UHGV virus genome: UHGV-0177136
From: a virus
Length of the DNA: 34,105 nt
Strand: one strand, 5' to 3'
Position numbers and translations under genes: made by a program
Part shown: in pieces, positions 2,558-25,491 of the stretch
Layout: each line of letters opens with the position of its first letter
How positions within the stretch are numbered: position 1 is the first letter of the stretch
The notes under the pieces: generated by a model
Seen by the model: only the letters and a program-made list of their open reading frames with translations
Databases searched by the model: none
What the model was told of the DNA's origin: nothing

Positions 2558-2613
2558 GGAGGCAGTATTGCCCCCGGGAAGTAAGCGCCGATATTAAAGG
2601 CGTTTAAGAAGGT

Positions 2614-7841: not shown

Positions 7842-7916
7842 AGTGGTTAACCTCCGGGGAAGGTGAAAAGACGTGAGGGGATAACGCAGAACAGCCGCTA
7901 CTGGCGGCTGTCTGTA

Positions 7917-8340: not shown

Positions 8341-8355
8341 ACTCCTTTGTAAATT

Positions 8356-8395
8356 CAGAGCAGTATGTCTGGCGGTGGACGTGACGGATATTAAA
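8356..8395 (-). promoter_or_regulatory. diverged third copy of the late-promoter-like motif, upstream of the tail chaperone gene
   Basis: Minus-sense TTTAATATCCGTCACGTCCACCGCCAGACATACTGCTCTG; shares TAA(A/T)ATCCGT and a CTG-initiated 8-mer at the same spacing. Confidence 0.35.
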
Positions 8396-8409
8396 GGGGA
8401 TTAAGAAGA

Positions 8410-8425
8410 AGGGGCCGGAGCCCCT
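8410..8425 (-). terminator. short GC hairpin (AGGGGC-TCCG-GCCCCT, minus sense) followed by TCTTCTTAAT; candidate terminator after the tube-region genes
   Basis: Perfect 6-bp stem with 4-nt loop just downstream of the stop of ORF 8432..8713. Confidence 0.35.
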
Positions 8426-8431
8426 GTGATG

Positions 8432-8713
8432 TCAGCAAGTGCGAAAACCCTTGCAGTTACGCAGGAAAGCGATGAGAAGCGCCTTTCCCTCAGATTTGCC
8501 GGTGCCGGAGAACCAGTGGTCGGGCGGCTCCCATGCTTCAATCAAATCGGCCAGTTTGCGGGCCTTTGAACGTGTGCAGTCAATCGGGTCATTGGTTTTA
8601 CGGGTATTAAAGAGGGTCTCCACCCCCGGAATATCAAGGAGGGTAAACCACGTACCATTTGACATGCCCAGTGACGCACATCGCCCTCCTTTGTCAGTCA
8701 GTTCAACACTCAC
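8432..8713 (-). CDS. hypothetical protein
   Basis: 93-aa ORF directly after the tail tube gene; no recognisable motif. Confidence 0.4.
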   Translation of the reverse strand: MSVELTDKGGRCASLGMSNGTWFTLLDIPGVETLFNTRKTNDPIDCTRSKARKLADLIEAWEPPDHWFSGTGKSEGKALLIAFLRNCKGFRTC

Positions 8714-8715
8714 CG

Positions 8716-9237
8716 TCAGCCCCCGATATTGATTCGATAGTCAGTCAGTTGATCAACGCCACCGACGCGGAAGATGTTGGCCAGATAGTCCAGTTGCAGC
8801 AACTCTTCACCATCCAGTACCTGTCTGATATACGTGCAGGTGAAGCTACTGGAGAACTCGGCGTTCTCGTGCTGTTTGAACGTCCCCAGCGGGTTCTTCT
8901 TGAACATAATTGTCAGGAAGGTGACCAGCGGGATTTCGTCGATCAGCCCCTGCGAGCTGTAGCGCTGGACGCTGGAGCGACACTGCAGCGCCAGCGACTT
9001 GTACGGGTTCGCGGCAGACAACATCGCATCGCGGTAAAAGCTGTTCCATTTGATTTCGCCTTCCAGTTTGTCAAAACCAGCCGGGAGTTCCACCTTACCC
9101 ACCATCCCCAGTGCCTTGTGCTCCTGCATAATCATGGAGACATCGGGGAGTTTAACTTCCTCAGCCCGTCCCAGCAGGTTAGTACCATCCAGATAGATGT
9201 TGGCATTCGTGATTCGGTTTATCTCAATCTTTGACAT
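8716..9237 (-). CDS. tail tube protein
   Basis: 173-aa ORF immediately after the sheath gene; size and position typical of P2 FII / Mu M-type tube proteins. Confidence 0.75.
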   Translation of the reverse strand: MSKIEINRITNANIYLDGTNLLGRAEEVKLPDVSMIMQEHKALGMVGKVELPAGFDKLEGEIKWNSFYRDAMLSAANPYKSLALQCRSSVQRYSSQGLIDEIPLVTFLTIMFKKNPLGTFKQHENAEFSSSFTCTYIRQVLDGEELLQLDYLANIFRVGGVDQLTDYRINIGG

Positions 9238-10664
9238 CAGTTGCCCCCTTTCAGGGTTAACAGGTATTCCGAGGTGATTTCAGTCTCAAACGTCAGTCGC
9301 TCCAGCGGCGGTGGTGGCGTATATTTGTAGCTCAGCAACAGGTGCCCGGCGGCCAGCTCCGTCTCCGGATTGCGGGCCGGATCAAACCAGCAACGGAAGC
9401 CCAGTACCGCACCATCACCAGTCATTTTGCGACCGTAGGCGTTGACCGACTCCGTCAGTGCATCAATCAGCGCCTGAGTAATCGGCATGTCGATGTACTG
9501 CTGGCTGAAGTAACGAATGGACTCGTTGATCACATCACCGGTGCGGCGAACGTTCTCAAAGTTACGCATATGGGTGACCGTTGGCCATGCCGCCGTCCGG
9601 TTACCCCACAGACGAAGGCCGCTGCCGTAACTGCTGAATACCGTGGTGATCCCCTGTTCGTTAAGCAGGTTCACCTCGCTCTGCGGATCGTCAATCATTG
9701 CCGACAGCTGGCGCTCCACGCCGGTGATCCCCAGAATTTCCTGATTGGAGGATGACCACCAGTACCCTTTGTCCAGGTCGACTTTGGCACGCAGGCCCGC
9801 CGCACGCTGGCTCAGTGGCTCCAGACGCTCCGTGTTCGTCACCGGGTCATATACCTTCACATGCGGGTAGCACAGGCGGACACGGTCAGAGCTGGTATTA
9901 AAGTTAATGGTGCCTTCCGGGCCACGTCCCGCCAGAGCCTGCGCAAAAGTGGTACCAACCGGCGCATCAATATAGGTTACTGCTCCCAGTTTCTCAGCCA
10001 TGGCGATAAGCTCAACCGAGACGCTGTTCTGGGTGCAGAATACCGGAGCAATCAGGATTTTGGCGAAGTAGCCAAACAGGTTAAAACTGTCGTTAAGCAG
10101 CTTCATGCCGGTACGGTTGCCTGCAGCGTTAACGGTACCGATGATATCAGCCGGGGTGACTTTGGTCGGATCAGCATAGTTATAGCTGGCCTTCACCGTT
10201 GCATCTGCAGCAATGCTTTTACCCAGGTTAGTAATCACCCCGGTCTGTGCATCAAGCGAGTAGTCCTGACCTTCAACATAAGGCTGACCGTCGCTGTCCG
10301 GTTTCAGTACCAGTTGCGCGACCACCGGATTAGCCAGCCGGGCTCTGCCTGTCGCCTTGTCGAACGACACATTCTCACTGACCACAGCGGTTTTATGCAC
10401 AGACGGATCGAGTACGTTAATGACCAGAACGGTGCCTGCACCATGGTCATAAATCGCATCCAGCGCCTGCGGAATGGTAAAGCCGGTGAACTGGCTGCCA
10501 AATGCCGCAGCGTCTTTCTCAGACAGGCACTGTACCAGCGTATTGACATCCCCCATCGGGGCGGTACCAATCAGGCCAATAACGGCAGATTTCACCGTTT
10601 TTACCGGGCGGGCTCCGTTTTCCACCTCAATGGTTTCGACGCCATGCAGATAGTTAGCTGCCAT
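9237..10664 (-). CDS. contractile tail sheath protein
   Basis: 475-aa ORF preceding the tube gene; size and order typical of sheath proteins. Confidence 0.8.
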   Translation of the reverse strand: MAANYLHGVETIEVENGARPVKTVKSAVIGLIGTAPMGDVNTLVQCLSEKDAAAFGSQFTGFTIPQALDAIYDHGAGTVLVINVLDPSVHKTAVVSENVSFDKATGRARLANPVVAQLVLKPDSDGQPYVEGQDYSLDAQTGVITNLGKSIAADATVKASYNYADPTKVTPADIIGTVNAAGNRTGMKLLNDSFNLFGYFAKILIAPVFCTQNSVSVELIAMAEKLGAVTYIDAPVGTTFAQALAGRGPEGTINFNTSSDRVRLCYPHVKVYDPVTNTERLEPLSQRAAGLRAKVDLDKGYWWSSSNQEILGITGVERQLSAMIDDPQSEVNLLNEQGITTVFSSYGSGLRLWGNRTAAWPTVTHMRNFENVRRTGDVINESIRYFSQQYIDMPITQALIDALTESVNAYGRKMTGDGAVLGFRCWFDPARNPETELAAGHLLLSYKYTPPPPLERLTFETEITSEYLLTLKGGN

Positions 10665-10908
10665 GGGAGTCCTCCGTTTTCACTTCGCTGTCACTGCTGC
10701 TTCTGCGCTTTGGTGACTGCACAGCTGGTGTGACGGCGGGTTTAGTCTCTTCAGATACCGGCGTCAGATGCTTCAGCGCCACCAGTACCTTCACGTAGTC
10801 ATGCTCCTCCGGCAGGGAAACCGTCTTCCCCGGCCAGAGCATGATTTCGGTTCCGTCCGACAGCGTGACGCCGCTGGCCGGGCCGGAATAGCGGTATTCT
10901 TTCATCAC
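10654..10908 (-). CDS. hypothetical protein (head-tail joining region)
   Basis: 84-aa ORF between head and tail modules. Confidence 0.4.
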   Translation of the reverse strand: MMKEYRYSGPASGVTLSDGTEIMLWPGKTVSLPEEHDYVKVLVALKHLTPVSEETKPAVTPAVQSPKRRSSSDSEVKTEDSHGS

Positions 10909-11369
10909 TCGCTTTCCTCATAGTTCACTTCGGTTAACAGCGGGCCGGACGGTAAATCGCTGTCTTCGATAAAGACGCTTTCAGTCGCGAAGTCGAGGGC
11001 GTATTGCCACAGCCCCCTGACTTCACCGATAAACACCTCGCGGGTCAGCCAGATACGGCGGCGGCAGCCGGGCGGGGTGTGGCCGCCGAGAATGCGGCGG
11101 ACAGCATCCAGGACATTAATCGCCCCTTTTTTACCGTTGAGCTGGCGGAAGACCACCGTGACGCAGAGCTGGATAGTCTGAGACTGGATCACCGCACCGG
11201 TATCATCCGGCCTGTCAAAGCGCGAACCGGCATAGCTCAGCAGCAACGCGCCAACCGGATGGTTCAGGCGATATTCAGCCGGTTTCTCCGGGAAGTACTC
11301 CACCTGCAGTTGCGGCAGCTTCTCGCGTAACCGGGCCAGTACCGCATCAAGGACGGGCAGAACGTTCAT
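10905..11369 (-). CDS. hypothetical protein, Mu gp37-like by position
   Basis: 154-aa ORF in head completion region. Confidence 0.5.
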   Translation of the reverse strand: MNVLPVLDAVLARLREKLPQLQVEYFPEKPAEYRLNHPVGALLLSYAGSRFDRPDDTGAVIQSQTIQLCVTVVFRQLNGKKGAINVLDAVRRILGGHTPPGCRRRIWLTREVFIGEVRGLWQYALDFATESVFIEDSDLPSGPLLTEVNYEESE

Positions 11370-11815
11370 CAGTATTTCTCCAGTAAACCGTCACGACCGC
11401 CGAAAGTGGCCGGGCGGCTGCGTACACGAAACTCGCCAGGCTCAGGCACATCTTTCTGAGTGGACGGCAGCCCCAGCGTGAGCCTGTTATCACGTAACTC
11501 CCTGAGTTGCCGCAGCGCTTCTTTGTGGTCATCCTTCACCGTATCCGGGAGGTCACCTTCCGGGCGGCGGGCGTAGAGCCGGTAACGGACCAGCGTGATG
11601 GCAATGTCCCGCAGAACAGTCGGTATCTCTGCCAGTGGCAGGATATAGCGTCCGCGCAGATGGGCATCAATCAGCTCGTCGGCATAGCGGATACAGCTGT
11701 CCACCACACGGGTATTCACTGTTGCAGGCGAGTCGAAGTCCATCTCTTCACTGGTGAGCTCGATCAGCGTTCGTTCCGGCACCTGCGCAAGCAAATCCTC
11801 CAGGGTGCAGTACAT
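11369..11815 (-). CDS. hypothetical protein, Mu gp36-like by position
   Basis: Track ORF runs to 11977 but the likely start is the ATG at 11815 (MYCTLEDLLAQ...), 1 nt after the stop of the upstream ORF; 148 aa. Confidence 0.5.
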   Translation of the reverse strand: MYCTLEDLLAQVPERTLIELTSEEMDFDSPATVNTRVVDSCIRYADELIDAHLRGRYILPLAEIPTVLRDIAITLVRYRLYARRPEGDLPDTVKDDHKEALRQLRELRDNRLTLGLPSTQKDVPEPGEFRVRSRPATFGGRDGLLEKY

Positions 11816-11816
11816 G

Positions 11817-12155
11817 TCACACCCCGCGCAGGATACGAATGACGTCGCCTTCACCCCCGGCTTCATCAAGTGCAATACCACAGGATTTACCGTCGCCGGA
11901 CTGCGGCACGGCTCTGGCCTGAGCATCTGACTGAACAGCCACACCACGGCTGACAGCGGCCCCGGCCTCGACAGCAATAATGCCCAGAACGCTCACCGGC
12001 GTGCTGTCGCCGGTAACAGCATCCACTTCGGCAACCCCGAGCGCTGCGGCACCGGCTTTACAGGGGGTATTATCTGCCCCGACAAAACGCTGCTGTGCCA
12101 GTGCGGCCCCTGCCGTTACGGTTGTGATCAGAATGACCTGCTGAGTGGTTCCCAT
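11817..12155 (-). CDS. hypothetical Gly/Ala-rich small protein downstream of the major head gene
   Basis: 112-aa ORF directly after the major head gene. Confidence 0.4.
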   Translation of the reverse strand: MGTTQQVILITTVTAGAALAQQRFVGADNTPCKAGAAALGVAEVDAVTGDSTPVSVLGIIAVEAGAAVSRGVAVQSDAQARAVPQSGDGKSCGIALDEAGGEGDVIRILRGV

Positions 12156-12164
12156 AACGCCTCC

Positions 12165-13118
12165 TTATTTACTGATACCGGTAATGAGATACCCGGCATC
12201 GCCACCAACCACGGCGACTTTGTAGATATCGGTATAACGGCAGTACTTCACCTTGCCGCCGGCTCCGTCGTACTTGTCGGCAACAGGCATCCCCTTACGG
12301 CGCAGGGTGTAGCCGAAGGACGGCTCGTTCTCGTCCGCGCTGTCCGCCCCCGGCTGCGGCTTGCCGACGTAATGCAGCATCAGATTGTCTCCCCAGATAT
12401 CCGTCGGCACGCTGTCCTTATCCATTGCCGCTTTCATGGACGGCAGGGAGACAGGAGCACCGATGACGATCTCTTCGATCTGAAAGAGGTCCTGCAGGAT
12501 CTCCGTGGTGATGCGCTTGCGTTCGTTGGCTCCGATGGCTGCCTGAATTGCCGGGTGGAACTTCAGCAGCGCCATCACGCCGGCCCCCATGGTCATCAGG
12601 TTAGGACGCAGCCCCGTGGCCGTACGGACCGCTTCCATACCGGCTTCAATTACCCCGATGGGGTCCCCCTTACCACCGGCCCAGCGGTCGCCGGCTGTCA
12701 GTTTTTTAACGTGCCCGGTACGGTAGACCTTTTCATCCTGAGCCAGACGGGCGGCGATAAGTTCACGGCGCAGATTTACGCCATTCGTGGCGCGACGGAT
12801 GGCCTTGCTCTCCTCGTTAAACATGGACTCCGCCTGTTCGCGATAGTCCACTGGCGCAGCCAGATCGTGCTCACCCAGCACCAGATCAAGCGTGCCGGTT
12901 TTCTCACGGACCAGAACATTGCTGTCCGCCCCGACGGCACGCTCGGTGTCATATTCCACAAAGGCGGTTTTCCCGAAGGTCGGCACACGCACGCCTTCCT
13001 TGTCCGTCAGCACGACGGGGAAAATACGTTCGCCAATGAATGCGGCATTTTTATAGCCTCGGGCGATACTGGTCAGTACCGGATCAACGACACGTTTACC
13101 TTTTAAGTAATCAGACAT
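12165..13118 (-). CDS. major head (capsid) protein, Mu gpT-like
   Basis: 317-aa ORF following the protease/scaffold gene; order I-T as in Mu. Confidence 0.75.
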   Translation of the reverse strand: MSDYLKGKRVVDPVLTSIARGYKNAAFIGERIFPVVLTDKEGVRVPTFGKTAFVEYDTERAVGADSNVLVREKTGTLDLVLGEHDLAAPVDYREQAESMFNEESKAIRRATNGVNLRRELIAARLAQDEKVYRTGHVKKLTAGDRWAGGKGDPIGVIEAGMEAVRTATGLRPNLMTMGAGVMALLKFHPAIQAAIGANERKRITTEILQDLFQIEEIVIGAPVSLPSMKAAMDKDSVPTDIWGDNLMLHYVGKPQPGADSADENEPSFGYTLRRKGMPVADKYDGAGGKVKYCRYTDIYKVAVVGGDAGYLITGISK

Positions 13119-13132
13119 GCTCTCTCCTTAAA

Positions 13133-14248
13133 TTACAGGCAGCGTGCGACAGCAGCCTCATAGCTGATGCCTTCTTTTTTGGACAGGGCCACTGCTTTCT
13201 GATGCAGGGCCAGACGCTCAGGATCGGCTTCCGCAAACTCCGCCACATCCACCTTCACCGCGTCGCCGACACGATCCTTTGTGGCCTGTTCGGCGAAGTT
13301 CATCACCGGCTCCCCGTCGGAGAGCAATGAACGGAAGGCGGTGGCCAGCGGTGTGCGGCTTTCCCCCTCAGCAAACTCCACCGGCTTGTCGCCACCGGCG
13401 ACGGCATCCAGCAGGGCAACCACCACGGAGGAGGCGCGGGGAGCCAGACGCCCCTCTGCGACCAGTTTTTCTGCAAAGGCCACATTGTCCTTATGCAGTT
13501 GCTCCTGTCTGACCTGTGCATCACGCGCATCGCGATCAGCAGCCTGCTGCTTCAGGCGGCGGTTCTCCTCCTGAAGGGCTTCAATCTCTTCTTTTGTCAT
13601 CGATGATTCCTCGTTACTTGCGGAAGACGGCCCCGGGCCTGTCTCACTGAATTGTGCACCTGCTGCATCCTGCGACAATGTGTCGCGGTACGCCTCTTCG
13701 CGCAGACTGTTGAGCTGCCATTCCGGCAGGACTTTTTCTGCCTCGTCCAGACTGAAGCGGGCGATCAGAAAATCGCGCAGCTTTCCCCACAGGGAGGCAT
13801 TCGTGATGGCCTGCCAGTCGGCGAACTCCACCACACCTTCTTCCTGCTCACTGAAGGACACCTGTTTCAGCCCTTTGACGGAAGGTGGCTGTGCCCCGAG
13901 AAAGCCCACATGGCGAAGGTAGAGCACGCCGGGCTTCGGATTGGACGGTGAATCCGGGAGGTAGAAAGAGGCGGACACTTTTTTGAATCGTCCGTCGGTG
14001 ACCATCTCAGCAAACTGCGGGTCCAGCTGGGCAGGCTCTGCCATCAGATCGACGCCGCTGAGCGACAGGGCTTTCACCCAGCCCCACGCCGGGTCTTCCG
14101 TTCTGGGATGACCAATCACGAGTGGTGCTTCATGGACGGACGGGTCATAGGCTTTCACGCAGGCGGCAAGATCGTCTGGCGTGAACGGCAGTTTTTTGCC
14201 GTGCATATCGGTATGAGTACCGGCTTTAAAAATGTGAATGGCTGACAT
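13133..14248 (-). CDS. head maturation protease / scaffold protein, Mu gpI-like
   Basis: 371-aa ORF with charged coiled-coil-like C-terminal half (EEIEALQEENRRLKQQAADRDARDAQ...), immediately upstream of the major head gene and preceded by a 214-bp intergenic region. Confidence 0.65.
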   Translation of the reverse strand: MSAIHIFKAGTHTDMHGKKLPFTPDDLAACVKAYDPSVHEAPLVIGHPRTEDPAWGWVKALSLSGVDLMAEPAQLDPQFAEMVTDGRFKKVSASFYLPDSPSNPKPGVLYLRHVGFLGAQPPSVKGLKQVSFSEQEEGVVEFADWQAITNASLWGKLRDFLIARFSLDEAEKVLPEWQLNSLREEAYRDTLSQDAAGAQFSETGPGPSSASNEESSMTKEEIEALQEENRRLKQQAADRDARDAQVRQEQLHKDNVAFAEKLVAEGRLAPRASSVVVALLDAVAGGDKPVEFAEGESRTPLATAFRSLLSDGEPVMNFAEQATKDRVGDAVKVDVAEFAEADPERLALHQKAVALSKKEGISYEAAVARCL

Positions 14249-14272
14249 TTTGCTGTCCCGCGTTATGTTGTC

Positions 14273-14311
14273 GGAGACAGTTTGTGAGAAATGCAGGCCC
14301 GGCGATTTTAA
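14273..14311 (-). promoter_or_regulatory. late-promoter-like motif upstream of protease/scaffold gene: TTAAAATC-N23-CTGTCTCC
   Basis: Minus-sense TTAAAATCGCCGGGCCTGCATTTCTCACAAACTGTCTCC, in the 214-bp intergenic region between the gpG-like and gpI-like genes. Confidence 0.45.
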
Positions 14312-14384
14312 TCTGCTTTAGAAAACATCAGGGGAGAAGGACAGGGAAAGCAATGCGGTGAACCGGAGGCGGTTATAAAACAGA

Positions 14385-14416
14385 GGCTGTAAAGCCTTTA
14401 TAAAGGTAATACAGCC
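14385..14416 (-). terminator. imperfect 32-bp dyad followed on the minus strand by TCTGTTTTAT; candidate terminator after the gpG-like gene
   Basis: GGCTGTA...TACAGCC arms with internal CCTTTATAAAGG palindrome. Confidence 0.35.
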
Positions 14417-14462
14417 CCTCATTCGCTGGCAATGATAAATCACCCACCTGAAGAGAGAAAAC

Positions 14463-14921
14463 TCAGCGACGGGCCGCTGATTCAAGATGGCGGACAATGG
14501 TATCGAGGATGGGGATTACCACTTCAGGCTGTAGTTCTCCATCCCCCGTCACCGGCAGGAACGGGCGGGCCGGAAGTTCAACAGACTCATTACGCCCCGT
14601 TTTACCCCCGAACTGGTGAATGGCACCGTAAACAACGTTGGTCCCCACAACAGCCTGCCGGTCGTCATGGTCGGTTGATACTGACCCCATCAGACGCCCG
14701 GTATCCTGCAGTGTCTGCCCGTCACGTTCTTCCGCTGCCAGCGAGGGCATCCACCCCGGACGCCCCTCATCAAGAAAGTTAAACTGTGTTTCCGCCAGCA
14801 GGGTTCCGGCGATTTTGCGCATCGCGGGCTCCATGTCTGTGGCAGCCAGATCCAGCGCACGGAGGCTCCGGCGCAGGGATTTATCGTTAATGGTGATACT
14901 GACCAGGTTATCGGAAGCCAT
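14463..14921 (-). CDS. virion morphogenesis protein, Mu gpG-like
   Basis: 152-aa ORF following the F-like gene. Confidence 0.6.
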   Translation of the reverse strand: MASDNLVSITINDKSLRRSLRALDLAATDMEPAMRKIAGTLLAETQFNFLDEGRPGWMPSLAAEERDGQTLQDTGRLMGSVSTDHDDRQAVVGTNVVYGAIHQFGGKTGRNESVELPARPFLPVTGDGELQPEVVIPILDTIVRHLESAARR

Positions 14922-14923
14922 TG

Positions 14924-15745
14924 TTATCCTCTCAGTTCCTGTTGTGCCAGTGGCTGAAGCGTACCCTGATAGCGGGCCAGGTCGGGACGGTATGCTGCCC
15001 CCGGTGCATAAGACCAGCCGACGTCGGTGGTCACCTTCGTGGTGCCGGTATTAAAGGTGGCCACGTTCCGCATTTCGCCGGTTTTCTCTGAGACCAGTTT
15101 CAGTTCCTGGCCCATGGCAGAGCCGGAGCTGATAACCTTCAGGCCACGGGCACGTACATCCGCCGCACTCAGGGCAATCACACTACAGCGGCAGCGCCAG
15201 CCGTTCGGCGGGTAAAATGCCTGCCAGAACGGGTCATCCCAGCGCAGCACCAGACCATGCAGCGCCAGATGGCTCCTGCGGGTATGGCTGTCGTTGATGC
15301 CGGTATACATCCAGTACGGCCTGTCGTCGACGTTTTCCATCTGTTCCGCCCAACGACCGGCGCTGTAGAGTACGGACATATTGGTGCGAAAGATGGTATC
15401 GAGCCGCCACGGACTGCCCTGCTGAATGGTGACCGGCTTACCCGTTACCGGGTCAGTCGTGTCACGTGGTCCCCACCATCCCTTACGCTTCAGCACCGGC
15501 TCCAGCTCCTGCCGGAACCAGCGATCGGTTTTTCCTTCATCGACAGCCTGCTGCAGTGCCCCGCGAATATCTTCCAGGATATCCAGGCGGGTCACTTTAG
15601 CAACGGTAAAGGCGCGGGCATGGGCCTCCTGCCACATTTCTTCCCAGTCCCAGGTAATCTGATACCCTTTGGACTTCAGGTAACTGACTGCCCGCTTCGG
15701 GGGAAGCGTCATGCAGTACGCCAGTTCAGCCGTTGTCACGCTCAT
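14924..15745 (-). CDS. head morphogenesis protein, Mu F-like
   Basis: Follows portal gene; likely start at internal ATG 15745 (MSVTTAELAY...) rather than track start 15772. Confidence 0.7.
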   Translation of the reverse strand: MSVTTAELAYCMTLPPKRAVSYLKSKGYQITWDWEEMWQEAHARAFTVAKVTRLDILEDIRGALQQAVDEGKTDRWFRQELEPVLKRKGWWGPRDTTDPVTGKPVTIQQGSPWRLDTIFRTNMSVLYSAGRWAEQMENVDDRPYWMYTGINDSHTRRSHLALHGLVLRWDDPFWQAFYPPNGWRCRCSVIALSAADVRARGLKVISSGSAMGQELKLVSEKTGEMRNVATFNTGTTKVTTDVGWSYAPGAAYRPDLARYQGTLQPLAQQELRG

Positions 15746-17222
15746 GCAGACGTCCCCAGATATTTGCCACAAAGAGAATGCGGGCCAGCCGTTCCTGCAG
15801 ATCGTCCGTGTTCATCTGAGGGTAGAGCTCCGCCAGTTCGCCCAGCAGCTCAGTCGGGTTAACCCCGTTTTCGACCCGCTTAAACAGAGGTGCCAGGACG
15901 GGTTCCAGCGTGCCATTTAACACACCTCCGTTCATCAGAATGTCCAGCGCGTCGTCAAGCTGCTGCTGAGCCTGAATATCGGCATCAATCGCCTCGGCAA
16001 ATGACAGCGGCAGCATGTTATTCTGGCGTTCCGACGGTGGTGTCTCGTCAATATCGCCGTCCTGCAGCTGGTACTCACGCTTAAAGTACTGCGGGGTCAG
16101 ACGCAGACCCGCCCGGGTGAGTTTTTCGTCGCGGGTGGCGCGGGTGTCATCAATGGTCTCCTGTTCCCACATGGCCCAGACCGGACACGGCACATCGCCG
16201 AAGTTCAGGGTGACCACCGTTCTGATAACCTGATTCACTGCTGCCTGAATGATGTCCGCATCCGCATCGCGGATATCAGCCGTTACCTCCAGCCCGGCCT
16301 GTGCTGAGGCCTTGTTACTGTTCGCTTCCGTGGTCTGATTCTGACCAAGTAATGCAATGGAGATCTCACTGCGTGACAGTGTGATCAGCTCGCGGAATAC
16401 CTCGCTGCTGTCCGCCTTACCATCCGCGGCTTTGAGTTCGATGCTGCTGTCATCGGGGATGGCGGCCACCGCGTCCTCCACCATCTGCTCCATGGAGTCC
16501 AGCAGTTTTTCAATCTCTGCATCATTTGCACCCCTCGGGTGCTTACCGATCACCCACGGGGAGCCAAACTTTTCGGCAAAGCGGAGCCAGAATTTCATCC
16601 CGCCTTTCTTGAAGGCGACCGGCCAGAAGCACATGGACAGGTCCGGGAAACCGTAAGGATTGTCATACGAGGCATCCTGTGCCGGCACCACGAATTTTGA
16701 CGGTGACAGCAGCTCACCCTCCACACCCGCATCACGCGCCCGGAAGCGCAGGCAGTTGTCCGTATCAAACTGAAACCACTCAGGCGGTTTGCCGACAATA
16801 TCCGTCACTGCCCACGCCCTGACCGAACGGCCCCACATGATTTCACAGGGCTGATACCCGTAGAGCACGGCATCACTCATCTCACCGATGATGCGGGACA
16901 GATCCAGATCGTCGAGCATGTCGCGGATGAAACGAAAGACCCGGGCAGAAGCGTGACCGCGCTCCAGTCCACGCTCCAGTGATTTGAGCGCTGCTTTACG
17001 TCTGCGGATACAGCCCCCAACCAGCGGGTCGGTGCGCAGTTCGCGGTAGATACGGATATCCCGTCCCTGAGCCTTGAGAATGGGATCAGGATTGGGCAGA
17101 TACATGCCCAGTCCGTAAAAGTCGATCGCGCGGCTGCGGGAGGCAATCTGCGCGGTCAGTGATTTCTGAGGCTCAGAAAAAGCAACAAATTCATCGGGTG
17201 AAACCCAGATACCCCTCGCCAT
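15726..17222 (-). CDS. portal protein (Mu gp29-like)
   Basis: 498-aa ORF immediately downstream of the large terminase gene. Confidence 0.75.
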   Translation of the reverse strand: MARGIWVSPDEFVAFSEPQKSLTAQIASRSRAIDFYGLGMYLPNPDPILKAQGRDIRIYRELRTDPLVGGCIRRRKAALKSLERGLERGHASARVFRFIRDMLDDLDLSRIIGEMSDAVLYGYQPCEIMWGRSVRAWAVTDIVGKPPEWFQFDTDNCLRFRARDAGVEGELLSPSKFVVPAQDASYDNPYGFPDLSMCFWPVAFKKGGMKFWLRFAEKFGSPWVIGKHPRGANDAEIEKLLDSMEQMVEDAVAAIPDDSSIELKAADGKADSSEVFRELITLSRSEISIALLGQNQTTEANSNKASAQAGLEVTADIRDADADIIQAAVNQVIRTVVTLNFGDVPCPVWAMWEQETIDDTRATRDEKLTRAGLRLTPQYFKREYQLQDGDIDETPPSERQNNMLPLSFAEAIDADIQAQQQLDDALDILMNGGVLNGTLEPVLAPLFKRVENGVNPTELLGELAELYPQMNTDDLQERLARILFVANIWGRLHERDNG

Positions 17223-18817
17223 CAGAATCCCTCCAGCATACGGGCCGCCTGACGACGACGGCGTGAGCTTGCCTTCACCGGCCCTTTGTTAATTTCACGG
17301 CTGGCGAAATACGCCAGCGCCAGTGCGATGGCTGAATCCCCGTGGCGTTTACCACCGTCAGCCTTTGCTTTTGAGCGTTGCTCCGGCACGCGGGGGACAC
17401 CGTTCACCACCTGAACGGCCCGCAGGTCATCCAGTGTGTCTTCATCCTTTGGTAAGTCCACCAGGTTACCGTCTTCCAGTGCAGCTTTGACCGGAGGCAT
17501 ATGCTCCCGGTACCAGCCTTCAGTTGGCATCACCTGCTGAACCCGGCTGGAGCCGTAGCGCTGCATGGCGTATTCAGCCAGATAGGCACCATTACCACGG
17601 GCATCAAACGCTGCACCCAGCAGACCGGGCAGGCCATCCATCAGATACCAGGTGATTTGCTCCTGCTGTCTGAACGGCACGTTACGCAGCTCCAGTACGA
17701 ATGGCACGCGTCGTACCAGGTTCTTCTCCTGCAGCAGGGGATAGTCCACCGACAAATCACCGCTACGGCCAAAGTCGCGCCCCAGGAAAGAGCGGGCATC
17801 AGCGGGGAGTGCCTCCAGCAAGGGTTTCAGATGCTCATCAAGCCAGTCCTGTGTCTCGTGGAAGCGAACCTCATCAGACAGCAGTTCATAACCTTCCTGA
17901 CAGGTCAGACGCAATACCGGCGTATCAGCGGACATGCGGGACTCTATCAGGGCACGGGACAGCCAGGCGCCGCCACCGTTGGCCGGAATACAATCAAGCT
18001 CTTCGGATGCGCCGGCAGCGTAGAATTTGTACACCGACGCCATCCAGGCCTGCTCGGATGCCTCTGACCATTCCTTCCCGGTGCGCAGACAAACGCGCCG
18101 GAACAGCCCCTCAGATACGGCTTCCCGGAAAGTGATGCGATGTACGCTGCCTCCCTGACGTCCGGCACGGATATCCCCGATAAGCGTATTGAACGGATTG
18201 TCGTCACCGTCATGGGTGGAGATAACGCGTACCTTTCCCCCCCAGATAAGCATCGCCAGCGCCGCTTTCAGCAGTTCGTCCAGTTGCTCATGGAACGCCG
18301 CTTCGTCGATAACAATAATACCCTGACGGCCACGCAGGTTAGACGGGCGGCTGGAGAGCGCAACAATACGAAAGCCGGAGTCAGGAAATTTGATGGTGTA
18401 AGTCTTGATGTGTTTGTCGTCGTCGTCCTCTTCCCAGAATCCTTCTTCAATTTCACTGGCCGCATAGTTGAATGCCCGTGCCCACATCGCACACGCCTGA
18501 ATGTATTCGACGGTCATGTCCTGGTTATAAGCGATGTAATACACATTCATCCCGCCTGCTGGCGCAGAAGAGGCGGCGGTCAGTACGTTATCGGATGCCT
18601 CAGCCCATGTAATACCGGTACGACGGCTCTTTTCTATCACCTTAAGCGGAGAGGTGTCTGCCACCCAGCGCTGCTGGTAAGGCAACAGAACGGGAGGGAC
18701 ATCCAGCGCCGAGGTATCAGGCAAAACGGGAGCAAGGTTATTCCTCCCGTCCATGGGACTCATCCCTTCGGGGCCGCCGCCAGCGGCGTTTAAAATCACT
18801 CCGGATGATTTTGTCAT
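17222..18817 (-). CDS. terminase large subunit (Mu gp28-like)
   Basis: 531-aa ORF between small-terminase-like and portal genes. Confidence 0.75.
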   Translation of the reverse strand: MTKSSGVILNAAGGGPEGMSPMDGRNNLAPVLPDTSALDVPPVLLPYQQRWVADTSPLKVIEKSRRTGITWAEASDNVLTAASSAPAGGMNVYYIAYNQDMTVEYIQACAMWARAFNYAASEIEEGFWEEDDDDKHIKTYTIKFPDSGFRIVALSSRPSNLRGRQGIIVIDEAAFHEQLDELLKAALAMLIWGGKVRVISTHDGDDNPFNTLIGDIRAGRQGGSVHRITFREAVSEGLFRRVCLRTGKEWSEASEQAWMASVYKFYAAGASEELDCIPANGGGAWLSRALIESRMSADTPVLRLTCQEGYELLSDEVRFHETQDWLDEHLKPLLEALPADARSFLGRDFGRSGDLSVDYPLLQEKNLVRRVPFVLELRNVPFRQQEQITWYLMDGLPGLLGAAFDARGNGAYLAEYAMQRYGSSRVQQVMPTEGWYREHMPPVKAALEDGNLVDLPKDEDTLDDLRAVQVVNGVPRVPEQRSKAKADGGKRHGDSAIALALAYFASREINKGPVKASSRRRRQAARMLEGF

Positions 18818-19359
18818 GTGGCAATCCCCAGAATCTCGCGACGAAGCGCCTGTACTGCGTCGCTTGACAGTCCCCCCTTACGGGCAATTTTCTCGGCGTT
18901 GCTGGCTGCCTGCTGCGCTCTGGCCCGTACTTCAGACTGGAACTTTTTGAGGTTGACGGACGCGCGGGACAGCGTAGCCACATTCTTCGCCACCTTCGAC
19001 AGCAGGGCCACGCGTTCTTTAGGATCGACTTCGCCTTCTTCCGCCTCCTGCAACTGGACAATACTCTCGAACAGCTCGGTCTGAATAAGGGCTATCACAG
19101 CCTCCGAACGCGCATCCTGATCGTCTGCTGCGCCTTCGGTCAGCATGCGGGCCGCTTCTGTTGCCGCACGGATAGCACCATAGCGGCGCTCAATCTTCTG
19201 TCCATAGCGATGGATAGCGGATTTGCTGATAACGTACCCCCGCTCACGCAGCAGGGACTCCAGCTCGTTATACCCGCTGAAGCCGGATTCAGTCAGCGCC
19301 CGTTCAAGCCAGCGGCGCACGTCTTCCGGCAGCTTTTCTATTGTGCTGCGTCTGGCCAT
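18814..19359 (-). CDS. putative terminase small subunit (Mu gp27 / DUF3486-like)
   Basis: 181-aa ORF with N-terminal HTH-like segment, directly upstream of the large terminase. Confidence 0.6.
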   Translation of the reverse strand: MARRSTIEKLPEDVRRWLERALTESGFSGYNELESLLRERGYVISKSAIHRYGQKIERRYGAIRAATEAARMLTEGAADDQDARSEAVIALIQTELFESIVQLQEAEEGEVDPKERVALLSKVAKNVATLSRASVNLKKFQSEVRARAQQAASNAEKIARKGGLSSDAVQALRREILGIAT

Positions 19360-19670
19360 TATTCACTCCAGTACTTTTCCGGGCGGGCAATACCCGGACC
19401 ACATTCCACGGTGTATTCCACCAGGTCTACGCCGAGGCGGGTCAGGTCAGCAAACCAGTCGCCAGAAGGTTTTTTCTCCAGATCAACCATTTTACGGTCA
19501 GCCAGATAATCCAGTTCGCGGCGCAGTTCCAGCGGTGTGGTGTCCGGGTAGATGGCACGGGACACATCCAGCAGCAGCGTCTCGCTGGCGGTGTAAGGGC
19601 GGGTCTTGTTCAGGGCAACCAGCAGACTCCAGCGCAGGGATTCGCGGCGTACCCGGGTAATATCGACCAT
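19359..19670 (-). CDS. hypothetical protein (Mu gp26-like by position)
   Basis: 103-aa ORF between lysis cassette and terminase genes. Confidence 0.45.
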   Translation of the reverse strand: MVDITRVRRESLRWSLLVALNKTRPYTASETLLLDVSRAIYPDTTPLELRRELDYLADRKMVDLEKKPSGDWFADLTRLGVDLVEYTVECGPGIARPEKYWSE

Positions 19671-19996
19671 TATTGACCTCCGGTATTGCGGTACTGCTGT
19701 ACCACTTCCAGTTTGTTATAAAGCGCGTCCAGTTTGGCCTCAATGACTGTCTGGCCACGGATATAATCCTCTCGACGGACATAATTCAGCGGTAAATCCG
19801 CTTTAAATCGCATAAATTCTTTTTCCAGCTCGCCCCAGTTGGAGGCGGACTGTTGCAGGGCCTGTTCAAGGGAGGCGAATCGTGCCGCCTGGCGTTCTTC
19901 TGTTTTACTGAACAACCATTTGGCGAGCCCTCCCACAAACCCCATGAAGGTGAGCAGAAAACTCACTACCGTCCAGAATTCAACCTGCAGTGTCAT
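19670..19996 (-). CDS. hypothetical membrane protein (Mu gp25-like by position)
   Basis: 108-aa ORF with one N-terminal hydrophobic helix (FWTVVSFLLTFMGFVGGLA) then coiled-coil-like region. Confidence 0.45.
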   Translation of the reverse strand: MTLQVEFWTVVSFLLTFMGFVGGLAKWLFSKTEERQAARFASLEQALQQSASNWGELEKEFMRFKADLPLNYVRREDYIRGQTVIEAKLDALYNKLEVVQQYRNTGGQ

Positions 19997-20643
19997 TTCT
20001 GTAATCCTTCCCGTTCATCCAGTAACGCGTTTATCTGGTTCCGCCAGCGACGACATTGTCCTGCGTTGTCGATGATGTTGGCGAGAACGTCACGCTGGGA
20101 GACACCCGAATCGCGTAACCGGGTGTCAGTGGTTTCAGGTTGCCCGGTCGCTGTGCCAGAGCGGGTGCCAGCGGCGGCAACTGAGTCTGAATGACCGGTG
20201 TCGACGGATGCATTGTCATATCCGAGTGCGGCGTTGTACTGGCGCACGAAACCGCGAGTAAACACGCACTCAATGGGATGGCTCTTACCTTTTTCATCAA
20301 TCCAGCGCTGTGTGACATCGTTAATTTGCCCCTGTAGTTGTTTATTCCGGCTCTCCAGTTGAGCAATCTGCTCAAGATAACCGGCTTCAGCCCGCTGCCC
20401 GGCGGCCACCTGCTCCTGATACCGTCTGGCCCAGGCCCGCAGCGCAGCATTCTCAAGCGTTGCCTGCTCCGTTTTGTACGCGTCAAATGCTGACTGCAAC
20501 TGACTGAGCGCGGTATCACCGTCACGCTTTGCAGAGTCATGACCACTTCTGTATCCCATGGCATACAGGCCGACCAGAAAGGCATTGATAAGAATGGCCA
20601 GCAGAATGCCGCGCCACGGCAGCTTTTTAACCAGATGCCACAC
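19993..20643 (-). CDS. putative i-spanin (Rz-like)
   Basis: N-terminal TM (ILLAILINAFLVGLYAM) followed by coiled-coil region, right after endolysin. Start set to GTG 20643 (GGAGG 9 nt upstream); alternative ATGs at 20733 and 20745. Confidence 0.5.
   Translation of the reverse strand: MWHLVKKLPWRGILLAILINAFLVGLYAMGYRSGHDSAKRDGDTALSQLQSAFDAYKTEQATLENAALRAWARRYQEQVAAGQRAEAGYLEQIAQLESRNKQLQGQINDVTQRWIDEKGKSHPIECVFTRGFVRQYNAALGYDNASVDTGHSDSVAAAGTRSGTATGQPETTDTRLRDSGVSQRDVLANIIDNAGQCRRWRNQINALLDEREGLQK
20031..20297 (-). CDS. putative o-spanin lipoprotein (Rz1-like), embedded in a different frame of the i-spanin gene
   Basis: 88-codon ORF from ATG 20297: MKKVRAIPLSACLLAVSC with lipobox-like AVSC, followed by Pro-rich sequence. 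Confidence 0.45.
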   Translation of the reverse strand: MKKVRAIPLSACLLAVSCASTTPHSDMTMHPSTPVIQTQLPPLAPALAQRPGNLKPLTPGYAIRVSPSVTFSPTSSTTQDNVVAGGTR

Positions 20644-21361
20644 AACTGCTGCCTCCCCATGTGAGATATCGCGGTGCCAGTTCGCGCAGGATGCGCTGCG
20701 GATAATGGCGGTTCTCCCGCCAGCTGGCCGCATTGCGTCCGGCATTCACCGTGGCGACATGTCCGAACCAGCGGGTGCTGTCCAGACCTTTCTGTGATGC
20801 AAGCCGCCTGTCCCGTTGTACCCAGCCCAGACCACCGTTATAGCCCGACAGTGTCATGGCCATACGCTCGCAGTCGTTGGCGGCGCTGACGCGCTGCCAC
20901 AGCCAGCGGTCATAGCTGACCAGCGCCCGGATAGCCCATGCAGGATTAAACGGCTCACGATTGCTCAGCATCGGTATCAACTGGCTTATCCAGTCGGCAG
21001 TGGCAGGCATGAACTGCGCCAGTCCCTGAGCGCCAGCCGGCGAGACCGCATCAGGTCGCCAGCCGCTTTCCTGATGCAGTTGCGCGGCGAAATCGGCCAC
21101 CGGCGCAGACAGTCCCCATTCAAGCCGGGCATTACGGATCACATCATCGCGATACTGCAGCGCAGCCTGCGGAGGCTGCGCTGCGCGGGCCTGACTGAAG
21201 AAGCCGCCACACCAGAGCAGCCAGACAATCACCAGGTTGCCAGCAAGCTGCCACCAGAAGCTGTATTTATCGTTACGTGGTTCTCCGTGTCTGATGGCGG
21301 TTACGCCCAGACCAAAGGCGAACAGAATAATGAGGGTGATTTGAGGCCAGTTCATGGTCAC
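20627..21361 (-). CDS. endolysin, lytic transglycosylase (SLT domain) with N-terminal hydrophobic segment
   Basis: 244 aa; SLT-like motifs (QESGW, AQGLAQFMP); N-terminal TM-like helix suggests a signal-anchor-release type. Confidence 0.75.
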   Translation of the reverse strand: MTMNWPQITLIILFAFGLGVTAIRHGEPRNDKYSFWWQLAGNLVIVWLLWCGGFFSQARAAQPPQAALQYRDDVIRNARLEWGLSAPVADFAAQLHQESGWRPDAVSPAGAQGLAQFMPATADWISQLIPMLSNREPFNPAWAIRALVSYDRWLWQRVSAANDCERMAMTLSGYNGGLGWVQRDRRLASQKGLDSTRWFGHVATVNAGRNAASWRENRHYPQRILRELAPRYLTWGGSSCVASG

Positions 21362-21708
21362 AGTCCTGTTGCCACAGCCAGACAGACCGCTGCAACAATC
21401 AGTGCACGGCGGATTAACGCAGCAGAAAATACAAGGTGAAGGCCGGTCTGCACAGGGAAACGCCCTTCAGCCATCAGTCTGTCGTCATGTTTCAGGTACT
21501 GACCGGGACGGGCTTTGGGGAAGAGCGAACGGTCAAGCCAGTAACCCAGCACTGCTGCCAGCGTGATGAGTGCCAGCTTGTAGATCACAACAGGCAACTG
21601 CTGTGGCGAGACCAGAGCGATGATGCCCAGCAACAGCACTGAGGTCAGCAGCCAGCCGCTGAGGCGAGGTTTTTTAACAGGGGGAATGAATTTTTTCAGG
21701 TTTTTCAT
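21358..21708 (-). CDS. putative holin / lysis membrane protein
   Basis: First gene of the late cluster; likely start ATG 21708 (MKNLKKF..., RBS GAGGAGA) rather than GTG 21741; three hydrophobic helices. Confidence 0.5.
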   Translation of the reverse strand: MKNLKKFIPPVKKPRLSGWLLTSVLLLGIIALVSPQQLPVVIYKLALITLAAVLGYWLDRSLFPKARPGQYLKHDDRLMAEGRFPVQTGLHLVFSAALIRRALIVAAVCLAVATGL

Positions 21709-21727
21709 GTGTGTCTCCTCGTTTGGT

Positions 21728-21766
21728 GGAGACAGCATCACAAATGTGGCGGGATACGGATTTTAA
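21728..21766 (-). promoter_or_regulatory. late-promoter-like motif upstream of holin gene: TTAAAATC-N23-CTGTCTCC (minus-strand sense)
   Basis: Minus-sense sequence TTAAAATCCGTATCCCGCCACATTTGTGATGCTGTCTCC; the two 8-mers and their spacing recur upstream of the gpI-like gene. Confidence 0.45.
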
Positions 21767-21822
21767 ACAGCGTTAATAGTGAAGATGTAAACGTGCACTG
21801 CATGATGGCTTTGAAAGAACGA

Positions 21823-21850
21823 CCAGCCCGGTACCCGAACACCGGGCTGG
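21823..21850 (-). terminator. GC-rich hairpin (10-bp stem, 8-nt loop) followed on the minus strand by a T-rich tract; candidate intrinsic terminator/insulator upstream of the late operon
   Basis: CCAGCCCGGT / ACCGGGCTGG perfect inverted repeat; minus-sense downstream sequence TCGTTCTTTC. Confidence 0.4.
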
Positions 21851-21955
21851 CCATCGCCCCACAGGAATGCGCTGTGAGCCGACCAAGGTTCAGTCAGTCT
21901 CGCGCGACCACACTAGCCTGGCATATTTTTTATAATTGTAAAAGGCTTACAGATT

Positions 21956-22726
21956 ATGAAAATGCAGACATTACCCATCGTTCCATGGATTGGTGGCAAA
22001 CGCCGCCTTGCAAAACACATCCTGCCGCTGTTTCCGGCGCATGAATGTTATGTGGAGCCGTTTTGTGGGGCAGCAGCGCTCTATTTTCTTAAGGTACCCG
22101 GCAAGATCGAAGTCATTAATGATATCAACGGTGAGCTGGTGAACCTGTATCGGGTGGTAAAACATCATCTGGAAGAATTTGTACGCCAGTTCAAATGGGC
22201 GCTGGTCAGCCGGCAGATCTACAAATGGCTGCAGATCACCCCGGAAGAAACACTGACGGATATCCAGCGTGCAGCACGGTTCTACTACCTTCAGAAGCAG
22301 GCGTTTGGGGGCAAGGTGGCGGAGCACAGCTTTGGTACCTCCACCATATCCCCGCCACGCTTCAACCTGCTGCGTATTGAAGAAGAACTGTCAGCGGCAC
22401 ACCTGCGGCTTTCCAGAACGGTCATAGAACACATGGACTGGCAACAGTGCATAGAACGATATGATCGCCCGCATACGTTGTTCTACTGTGACCCTCCATA
22501 CTGGGGAACGGAAGGTTATGGTGTGGAGTTCGGACTAGAAAATTATGATCATATGGCAGATTTAGCACGCAGGATCAAAGGGAAGATGATTATATCGGTG
22601 AACGATATCCCGGAAATGCGGCAGGCATTCAACGGTCTAAATATTCAGTCGGTTGATATCAGCTACAACCTCAAGATCACTGGCAAATCCAGTCGCAAGA
22701 AGGAACTCATTATCCTCAACTTTTGA
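21956..22726 (+). CDS. DNA adenine methyltransferase, Dam/D12 family (no adjacent restriction enzyme gene seen)
   Basis: 256 aa; N-terminal WIGGKRRL SAM-binding-type motif and DPPY catalytic motif; TATAAT at 21931..21936 upstream. Confidence 0.85.
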   Translation: MKMQTLPIVPWIGGKRRLAKHILPLFPAHECYVEPFCGAAALYFLKVPGKIEVINDINGELVNLYRVVKHHLEEFVRQFKWALVSRQIYKWLQITPEETLTDIQRAARFYYLQKQAFGGKVAEHSFGTSTISPPRFNLLRIEEELSAAHLRLSRTVIEHMDWQQCIERYDRPHTLFYCDPPYWGTEGYGVEFGLENYDHMADLARRIKGKMIISVNDIPEMRQAFNGLNIQSVDISYNLKITGKSSRKKELIILNF

Positions 22727-23921: not shown

Positions 23922-23923
23922 GA

Positions 23924-25409: not shown

Positions 25410-25425
25410 TTGAACATATCTCAAT

Positions 25426-25453
25426 TTGACACACTCATTTGGGTGTGTACAAT
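25426..25453 (+). promoter_or_regulatory. sigma70-like early promoter (TTGACA-16 nt-TACAAT) with an ACACAC/GTGTGT inverted repeat in the spacer
   Basis: TTGACA at 25426..25431 and TACAAT at 25448..25453; inverted repeat 25429..25434 / 25443..25448; about 45 nt upstream of the ner-like ATG. Confidence 0.5.
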
Positions 25454-25491
25454 AGACCCAATAGAGTACATCATAACCTAACAAGAACACG

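Follow-up and report, generated by a model that had tools for sequence, protein, structure and literature searches.

How are the late genes of a Mu-like transposable prophage divided into transcription units, and what stops RNA polymerase where one unit ends and the next begins? The question is raised by the virus genome UHGV-0177136, represented here by a stretch of 34,105 nucleotides (nt), hereafter the window. Judged from its sequence, the window is a BcepMu-type (Bcepmuvirus-like, Mu-like) transposable prophage; its closest phages are Escherichia phage PhiKM, classified as a Bcepmuvirus, and Klebsiella phage KP12, with 97% and 87% identity over the late region, respectively. To our knowledge, no promoter or terminator map has been published for this prophage family, and a literature search found no paper on promoters or terminators of BcepMu-type phages. 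An earlier note had described three copies of a late-promoter-like motif on the minus strand, each preceded by a stem-loop and a T-rich tract, and had read them as terminator-promoter modules that insulate the late units from upstream read-through.

The favored answer, with a probability of about 0.6, is that the late genes are read from BcepMu-type late promoters served by a single activator of the Mor/C family, that the second and third stem-loops (hairpins 2 and 3) end the preceding late units, and that the first (hairpin 1) is a terminator of antisense transcripts linked to the methyltransferase gene dam. Hairpins 2 and 3 would mark the ends of a lysis-terminase-head morphogenesis unit and then of a head-sheath-tube unit. 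Acting as partial intrinsic terminators, they would leave the level of each following unit to be set by its own activator-dependent promoter, as in Mu. Hairpin 1 would terminate transcripts antisense to dam, coming from the operon of the repressor and its cargo or from a local antisense promoter, and would halt RNA polymerase before it reaches the activator site and the holin and endolysin genes. This answer draws on the structures observed, their conservation and covariation, the architecture of the promoters, and the parallel with the annotation of Mu, whereas termination at these elements, its efficiency, activation by Mor, and the start sites are deduced. Since the arrangement in Mu is similar, the finding is real but largely ordinary, and the earlier interpretation holds broadly for hairpins 2 and 3 and is plausible for hairpin 1, there on grounds that differ slightly from a module.

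Predicted late promoters of the Mor/C type

The late promoters share a composite architecture, consisting of a dyad TTAA-N6-TTAA (CTAA in the second copy), an interval of 23–24 nt, and a −10 hexamer of the form nAnnnT followed by G, with no −35 element. In the three gaps that were aligned, the hexamer and its G lie 23 nt past the dyad and read GATGCTG, CAAACTG, and CATACTG. The composite pattern TAA-N6-TTAA-N23/24-nAnnnTG is found at exactly five sites in the window versus 0.07 expected from shuffles; it was derived from the three promoters flagged by the earlier note, and its fit to those three is partly circular. The dyad and its flank alone give four exact minus-strand matches, each in a late gap, versus 0.68 expected. 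The three motif copies of the earlier count thus become five with the composite pattern, through a fourth late-strand copy and one pointing at dam. Because dyads and −10 hexamers are invariant among relatives while the spacers between them are hypervariable in sequence and constant in length, the two conserved parts constitute a promoter signature. When the hexamer is set at −12 to −7, the dyad is centered at about −42.5 and start sites can be predicted.

The five promoters head the genes for the holin, protease I, the tail chaperone, the baseplate, and dam (Table 1). The copies are kept in enterobacterial relatives, and three of the five are also found in phages of the BcepMu group. The dyad and −10 that precede the holin gene are present in all relatives, regardless of what lies farther upstream. 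At the equivalent of the Mu promoter PI, the block TTTTCTAAAGCAGATTAAAATCG is identical across all relatives and its flanks are divergent, and at the tail-unit promoter an invariant dyad and CATACTG enclose a hypervariable 23-nt spacer. Dyads of the type GTAAAGC(C/G)GATTAAAAGACC occur at matching junctions in BcepMu, phiE255, and one phage each of Ralstonia and Pseudomonas, and those of BcepMu are followed by an nAnnnT-G hexamer at equal spacing. The fourth late-strand promoter, conserved in KP12 and PhiKM, is located where baseplate genes are separated by 57 nt. The ATG at 2557 follows the end of its −10 by 7 nt, and the mRNA is accordingly predicted to be leaderless; BcepMu PI has a similar geometry. 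In addition, a pyrimidine-rich CTG(Y)CTCC-like sequence directly follows the −10 in all four late-strand promoters (21733..21726, 14278..14271, 8361..8354, and 2563..2556).

The binding site of MuC is TTAT-N5-6-ATAA, centered at −43.5, in promoters that have a −10 and lack a −35 (PMC12867686; PMC2582627). By its architecture, the late motif is a Mor/C-type promoter resembling the C-dependent promoters of Mu, and the late genes appear to be read by the host sigma-70 RNA polymerase from promoters that need a Mor/C activator. The presumed activator of all five is the Mor/C-family protein encoded by the last gene of the early operon, which aligns with 31% identity to Mu Mor and 37% to Mu C. Its homologue in PhiKM is annotated as a late activator, and only one copy of the Mor/C gene is annotated in the close relatives. 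A scan for sigma-70 promoters misses the late promoters, as expected for sites without a −35. Among the viral contigs L043–L053, which are too divergent for gap alignment, the dyad was seen in L045 only.

Some other readings of the same sequences were dropped. TTAAAAT had been considered as the −10 of the late promoters, but the dyad symmetry, the fixed distance of 23–24 nt to the conserved nAnnnT, and the Mu precedent favor an activator site. Antisense promoters at the PI and tail-unit dyads have no nAnnnT at the proper spacing by eye, and the composite search concurs. Leader hairpins that would sequester the Shine–Dalgarno sequence (TGTCTCC..GGAGACA, in the leaders of the lysis operon and gene I) were discarded, as the 5′ arm contains the predicted start and relatives disrupt the analogous pairing of the third leader with no compensating change.

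Hairpins at the probable ends of the late units

Local folds were compared with 200 dinucleotide shuffles, of which 0–1 matched the three hairpins. All three stem-loops described earlier were confirmed at their minus-strand coordinates, with z values of −5.3, −4.5, and −3.4 for hairpins 1, 2, and 3, and their folding energies (−25 to −28.8, −19.6, and −12.8 kcal/mol) are far better than those of the shuffles. Terminator predictors gave a mixed answer. A scan requiring at least five T in eight positions picks up hairpin 3 and, in shortened form, hairpin 2, whereas hairpin 1 escapes it, and a second score of the d’Aubenton-Carafa type, calculated on Vienna energies, is positive for hairpin 3 only (−10 for hairpin 1 and −32 for hairpin 2). 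Because the terminators annotated at equivalent places in Mu are negative too (−11 and −29 on the same energy model), this yardstick is conservative; the value of hairpin 1 is close to that of the annotated Mu G-I terminator. The T-rich tract reported behind each stem-loop is present, yet weak or interrupted. Likewise, the reported distance of 45–70 nt to the motif describes hairpins 1 and 2 (44 and 60 nt to the dyad) but not hairpin 3, which lies 5 nt from its dyad.

Among 400 local fold minima of the minus strand (56% GC), hairpin 1 ranks 1st in stability, hairpin 2 52nd, and hairpin 3 about 215th. The significance of hairpins 2 and 3 therefore rests on their position, in gaps just past stop codons, and on their conservation, not on energy. 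Indeed, a tally from the list of open reading frames (ORFs) and the sequences gives only five non-coding gaps on the late strand; four of them contain hairpins, and hairpins 1–3 occupy three. The hairpin positions are conserved with compensatory change across phages of about 40–50% protein identity. The remaining hairpin of these gaps (−18.1 kcal/mol, z −4.9) separates the genes of the tail chaperone and the tape measure and has a weak T-tail. The earlier generalization that each motif copy is preceded by a hairpin does not hold, since only three of the four late-strand copies have one, the copy at 2607..2563 lacks one, and the hairpin at 7914..7887 is not followed by a motif. What survives of the proposed module is its form at the junction of genes G and I and after the tail tube genes, where all relatives examined again have a putative terminator followed by a promoter; hairpin 1 forms no part of the late promoter.

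Hairpin 3 is, on this evidence, the best-supported putative terminator of the three. It begins 6 nt past the stop (8432) of the small DUF7739 gene located after the tail tube gene, and its tail, TTCTTCTTAA (TTTCTTCTTAA for most relatives), extends into the first TTAA half-site of the next dyad. Among relatives, the stem is retained and the loop changes (UCCG, UUCG, or UGCG). In L037 and L038, the DUF7739 gene is absent, yet a longer and different stem, AGGGGGCC-GUAA-GGCUCCCU, is found at the same place. The gap between the tube and chaperone genes of BcepMu and phiE255, whose proteins are only about 48–50% identical, contains GGCCCGC-UUCG-GCGGGCC followed by TTTTTTAA, which has a 6-T tract, and then by a dyad and GACAAT at the usual spacing. 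This is a textbook terminator, in BcepMu of unrelated sequence but equal structure. Rho-independent terminators after abundant structural genes are known from phage late operons. Hairpin 3 shares with these canonical terminators a short GC stem, a stable tetraloop, and a T-run right after the tube-side genes, and the downstream genes, whose products are required in smaller numbers, would be expected to be expressed less. It differs in being fused to an activator-dependent promoter, by which downstream expression would be reset and not just attenuated.

Hairpin 2 begins 43 nt past the stop of gene G (14463). Its apex, TTTATAAAG (14404..14396), is the sole invariant stretch of the G-I gap in seven lineages from four host genera (E. 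coli, Burkholderia, Ralstonia, and Pseudomonas phages). This gap holds a strong hairpin in each lineage examined, although the hairpin differs between them: relatives whose gene-I protein is about 74% identical to that of the window have a stem of 16 base pairs (bp) and a mini-hairpin in place of hairpin 2, and the gap of BcepMu contains a 13-bp stem. Because the invariant apex is not needed by a plain terminator, hairpin 2 seems to carry an extra sequence-specific element. The sequence thus suggests that the first late unit terminates at hairpin 2, as it does in Mu, and that this hairpin has an additional sequence-specific role. A site for IHF was considered at TATAAAGGCTTTA and rejected, as it departs from the consensus WATCAANNNNTTR at one position and is missing from some lineages. 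Upstream of hairpin 2, the terminator scan lists a weak hairpin over the stop codon of gene G (−8.8 kcal/mol, z −1.2, not significant), which may be a second, weak stop signal before hairpin 2. The 4-T run past the gene G stop is kept in all enterobacterial relatives.

The dam-linked block and the two strands of hairpin 1

Hairpin 1 has no adjoining gene on its own strand: the nearest minus-strand gene, the last of the repressor/cargo operon, ends at 22716, overlapping the 3′ end of dam, and dam lies antisense between that point and the hairpin. In 21 distinct relatives, pairing is kept in 99.4% of the stem cells, one base pair occurs in three forms (UA, CG, and AU), and most single changes are compatible with G.U pairs on the minus strand. 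The tail, (TC)GTTCTTTCA, i.e., TCGTTCTTTCA, ends at about 21810 and is invariant, and the sequences diverge right after it, which marks a mosaic breakpoint. The hairpin closes a conserved, structured block of about 115 nt, running from the dam start codon to the hairpin-1 tail and containing three hairpins. This block adjoins dam in all relatives with 83–98% identity, and its inner hairpin, CTCACAG-N6-7-CTGTGGG, has an invariant stem and a hypervariable loop of 6–7 nt. In KP12, PhiKM, and L018, other genes amounting to 0.3–1.2 kb intervene between the block and the lysis promoter, yet the block stays beside dam. By these sequence comparisons, hairpin 1 is part of the dam block rather than of the lysis promoter. 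Between its tail and that promoter lies an interval that is a hotspot of gene insertion in relatives (L002 24342..25014, L001 30817..32316, and L018 1360..2544). When the dam-holin segment (21650–22050, 401 nt) was used as a query, part of it matched 636 of 5426 complete E. coli genomes, and 35 of these 636 have the compact arrangement of the window.

The earlier proposal that hairpin 1 stops antisense transcription coming from the repressor operon across dam stands as far as the order of encounter is concerned, since the terminator scan found no other minus-strand candidate between 22716 and 21852 and hairpin 1 would be met first; the stop itself is a deduction. Plausibly, hairpin 1 ends transcription that crosses dam in the lysogen. 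A terminator makes sense here because read-through would otherwise enter the holin and endolysin genes. The operon in question consists of the CI-type repressor gene and, 3′ of it, two genes of low GC content (41–46%; 22716..24931, minus strand), which encode a YejK/NA37-like protein and a 401-residue membrane protein with a KwaA-like C-terminal part. They show a remote likeness to the two-gene DS1 anti-phage system, with NCBIfam values of 3e-21 and 1e-17 that are far under the curated cut-offs, and are probably defense-like cargo expressed in lysogens along with the repressor. On the other side, a near-consensus sigma-70 promoter, TTGACA-16-TACAAT (25426..25453, plus strand), stands ahead of the early operon and points away from the gene of the repressor; it probably serves as the early promoter.

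The block could also be read as an RNA in its own right. Its fold is −55 kcal/mol (z −3.1) in the minus sense and −40 kcal/mol (z −2.3) in the plus sense, and among one-sided substitutions eight keep pairing in minus-sense RNA only versus two that favor the plus sense (p of about 0.05 by a simple binomial), a bias that is suggestive. A sigma-70-like sequence, TTTTCA-16-TACAAT (21962..21935, minus strand), lies 5′ of the block and could produce an RNA of about 115 nt antisense to the dam leader; its hexamer is only moderately conserved (TACAAT, TGCAAT, TATAAT, or TACAGT). The block is a candidate for a minus-strand antisense RNA, a plus-strand dam leader, or both. Short cis-antisense RNAs are known from phages and transposons, such as OOP of lambda, sar of P22, and RNA-OUT of IS10. 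The block resembles them as a structured minus-strand segment that ends in a strong hairpin and a T-run, is complementary to the predicted dam leader, and follows a sigma-70-like site. It differs in its moderately conserved promoter hexamers and the lack of an Rfam family. Rfam gave no match at the gathering score in the whole window and none at E ≤ 10 in 21650–22050; a tRNA/tmRNA search and a listing of small ORFs in the dam-holin gap returned no tRNA and no credible small ORF; and no noncoding RNA is annotated at the block by PGAP in E. coli genomes.

On the plus strand, the only match of the composite pattern, its fifth hit, is the predicted late promoter of dam, which uses the dyad of the lysis promoter in the opposite direction. 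In 19 of 19 distinct contexts, the order is the same: dyad, 23–24 variable nt, CATGAT/CATCAT/CATCCT/CACTCT, 0–12 nt, GAAAGAACGACC, hairpin, and dam. By analogy with mom of Mu, this suggests that dam is a late gene with a Mor-dependent promoter. Like Pmom, the predicted promoter would serve a DNA-modification gene through a Mor/C-type site and a long structured leader. Unlike the Mu case, the enzyme is a D12-class Dam and not Mom, the promoter is divergent from the lysis promoter, with which it shares one dyad in the window, and no Com-like translational activator was identified.

Table 1. Positions of the hairpins, promoters, and genes in the window.
Feature	Position	Strand	Description
Hairpin 1	21821..21852	−	13-bp GC-rich stem-loop; perfect 10-bp core 21850..21823; extends to 13–16 bp, 21855..21818
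Hairpin 2	14382..14419	−	10 + 4 bp stem with 3 × 3 internal loop; tail GTTTTATAA, 14381..14373
Hairpin 3	8410..8425	−	AGGGGC-UCCG-GCCCCU; 6 bp, UCCG loop
Additional hairpin	7887..7914	−	Between tail chaperone (E/E′) and tape-measure genes, just past the stop of the frameshifted chaperone ORF; no promoter motif
Weak hairpin over gene G stop codon	14463..14480	−	From terminator scan; followed by GTTTTCTCTC (GTTTT)
Lysis-operon late promoter	21733..21776	−	Dyad TTAACGCTGTTTAA, 21776..21763; −10 GATGCT, 21739..21734; composite match
Head protease/scaffold late promoter (Mu PI equivalent)	14278..14321	−	Dyad CTAAAGCAGATTAA, 14321..14308; −10 CAAACT, 14284..14279
Tail chaperone/tape-measure late promoter	8361..8404	−	Dyad TTAATCCCCTTTAA, 8404..8391; −10 CATACT, 8367..8362
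Fourth late-strand promoter	2563..2607	−	Not listed in the earlier note; dyad TTAAACGCCTTTAA, 2607..2594; −10 AATACT, 2569..2564
Predicted divergent late promoter for dam	21763..21807	+	Lysis-promoter dyad, 21763..21776; −10 CATGAT, 21801..21806; predicted start ~21813
Conserved structured block	21810..21930	−	~115 nt; dam start codon to hairpin-1 tail; three hairpins
dam, D12-class Dam methyltransferase	21956..22726	+	Convergent with repressor-side operon, divergent from holin
CI-type repressor	25002..25505	−	Followed by two low-GC genes
Late genes	Holin start 21708 down to tail genes	−	
Early operon	Starts ~25492	+	Carries transposase; last gene is the Mor-family activator
Mor/C-family transcription activator	33716..34105	+	Pfam Mor, 1.3e-43; closes early operon

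The gene map underlying these entries was built from gene order and Pfam matches.

Competing readings and the parallel with Mu

Several observations count against terminators placed ahead of late promoters. The T-tracts are interrupted, the tail of hairpin 1 fails the rule of at least five T in eight, the scores of hairpins 1 and 2 are negative, and hairpins 2 and 3 do not stand out in stability rank. The KP12 group and the group with the ~74% identical gene-I protein have lost the T-tail of hairpin 2, and the conserved part of this hairpin is the apex and not the stem, opposite to hairpins 1 and 3, which have fixed stems and free loops. The T-run CTTCTTAA after hairpin 3 recurs before the fourth dyad, and because this promoter has no hairpin, part of the hairpin 3 “T-tract” may belong to the promoter. 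Upstream of the fourth promoter no hairpin was found, the preceding 80 nt being unstructured (z +1.1), and the lysis promoter of BcepMu is not preceded by a hairpin. Type-B relatives likewise lack one near their lysis promoters; in L018, which is of this type, about 1 kb 5′ of the holin contains no terminator-like site but the dam-block hairpin, which is unscored by the T rule. Finally, hairpin 1 lies within the leader, at about +8 to +40 of the predicted dam mRNA, and selection on its stem could come from the plus strand.

This last point opens the strongest alternative, a minority possibility to be taken seriously, that hairpin 1 is mainly a 5′ stem-loop of the late dam mRNA controlling its stability or translation, the minus-strand T-run being the initial transcribed or discriminator sequence. 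It would account for the composite promoter match on the plus strand (21764–21807), for the fixed order of dyad, spacer, CATnnT, GAAAGAACGACC, and hairpin in the 19 contexts, and for the start of the conserved block about where the dam transcript would begin, and it agrees with the C-dependent late promoter of the Mu DNA-modification gene mom (Mu record; PMC2582627). The 8:2 excess of substitutions that pair in minus-sense RNA only and the minus-sense fold, more stable by about 15 kcal/mol, argue against it. In addition, in type-B relatives the −10 abuts GAAAGAACGA, so that the run would be only partly transcribed, yet it is always the tail of the minus-sense hairpin. The two roles are compatible, however, and a terminator read on one strand may be a leader structure on the other. 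Somewhat more doubtful is the corresponding idea for hairpin 2, that it is mainly a DNA-level element with the invariant palindrome TTTATAAA(G) at its center, which might bind a protein or bend the DNA and possibly correspond to the Mu gyrase site, with termination secondary or absent. The invariance of TTTATAAAG alone in the gap across host genera, while stem arms and T-tail change, is what this idea explains best, the more so as hairpins 1 and 3 show the reverse pattern. The Mu gyrase cut site lies at 17879/80, 28 nt before the terminator hairpin of the Mu G-I gap (Mu record), and it works only if central (PMC10052514); the G-I gap is at 0.51 of the BcepMu genome and, as estimated from KP12 offsets, at about 0.45 here. 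However, there is no sequence likeness to the Mu gyrase site beyond AT-rich palindromes, and sites of other origin failed to replace the Mu site, except for one from a close Mu relative (PMC10052514). Moreover, a late-strand hairpin around TTTATAAAG still forms in every lineage, and the two changes between phiE255 and BcepMu both give G.U pairs on the late strand, which fits an RNA role. Mu’s strong gyrase site (SGS) thus shares with TTTATAAAG a place in the G-I gap, near the genome center and beside a terminator hairpin; no sequence homology was found, and the likeness is a lead only for explaining TTTATAAAG.

The two remaining alternatives concern the hairpins as a set. That they are 3′ stabilizers or processing boundaries of a polycistronic late RNA, in which segment stability sets protein ratios, would suit the weak U-tracts and the negative terminator scores of hairpins 1 and 2, as well as the similar hairpin without a promoter between the chaperone and tape-measure genes, from which it follows that a hairpin need not mean a new unit. 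This is judged unlikely: the BcepMu/phiE255 homologue of hairpin 3 has a perfect 6-T tract, a promoter directly downstream is hard to account for under full read-through, and terminators are annotated at equivalent places in Mu. Chance association is disfavored and very improbable. GC-rich phage DNA folds everywhere and few gaps exist, and the ranks of hairpins 2 and 3 and the yield of the terminator scan over the region (20 sites versus 13.9 expected) would be in line with it. Yet z values from −3.4 to −5.3, equaled by 0–1 of 200 shuffles, and hairpins in four of five late-strand gaps speak against chance, as do positions conserved with compensatory change and the presence of hairpins at these junctions in related phages.

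The reading of hairpins 2 and 3 as partial terminators between Mor/C-dependent units is also the one that the Mu genome suggests. In the Mu GenBank record, terminators at 10383–10406 and 17908–17953 stand directly before Plys (10403–10469) and PI (17977–18043). Both phages use a Mor/C-family activator and a dyad site centered near −43 with a −10 and no −35, and both have four late-strand promoters, one of them in the G-I gap behind a hairpin with a T-run. At Mu Plys, as at hairpin 3, the T-run of the terminator enters the first activator half-site, and Mu PP, located inside gene N, is a late promoter without a terminator, like the fourth promoter here. The terminators of the Mu lys and P transcripts were reportedly mapped experimentally by Zha, Zhao, and Howe (J Bacteriol 1994). 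Differences are present as well: the half-sites are TTAT/ATAA in Mu and TTAA/TTAA here; the single Mor/C homologue probably implies a cascade of two steps, not three; the late genes are divergent from the early genes, a layout known from BcepMu; the third unit begins past the tail tube gene and the fourth within the baseplate genes; and the hairpin before the lysis promoter ends a dam-linked element and not the transcript of the activator gene.

A wider proposal, offered tentatively, is that the dam-holin gap is a compact bidirectional control region in which one Mor site would fire both the lysis operon and dam, the segment between them would be read on both strands, and hairpin 1 would shield the lysis genes; separately, TTTATAAAG would be a genus-wide cis element of gyrase or architectural function atop a terminator. 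For the prophage family, the results provide a testable transcription map, made up of five promoters predicted to depend on the activator, two or three hairpins at which units would end, and a probable insulator of the lysis genes. Current understanding is not overturned, and the value lies in annotation and in the design of experiments, for which the bidirectional dyad with its dam leader/antisense block and the invariant TTTATAAAG are the parts most worth pursuing. Collectively, these observations indicate that the logic of Mu, in which some of the Mor/C-type promoters are preceded by terminators, holds in the BcepMu lineage as well.

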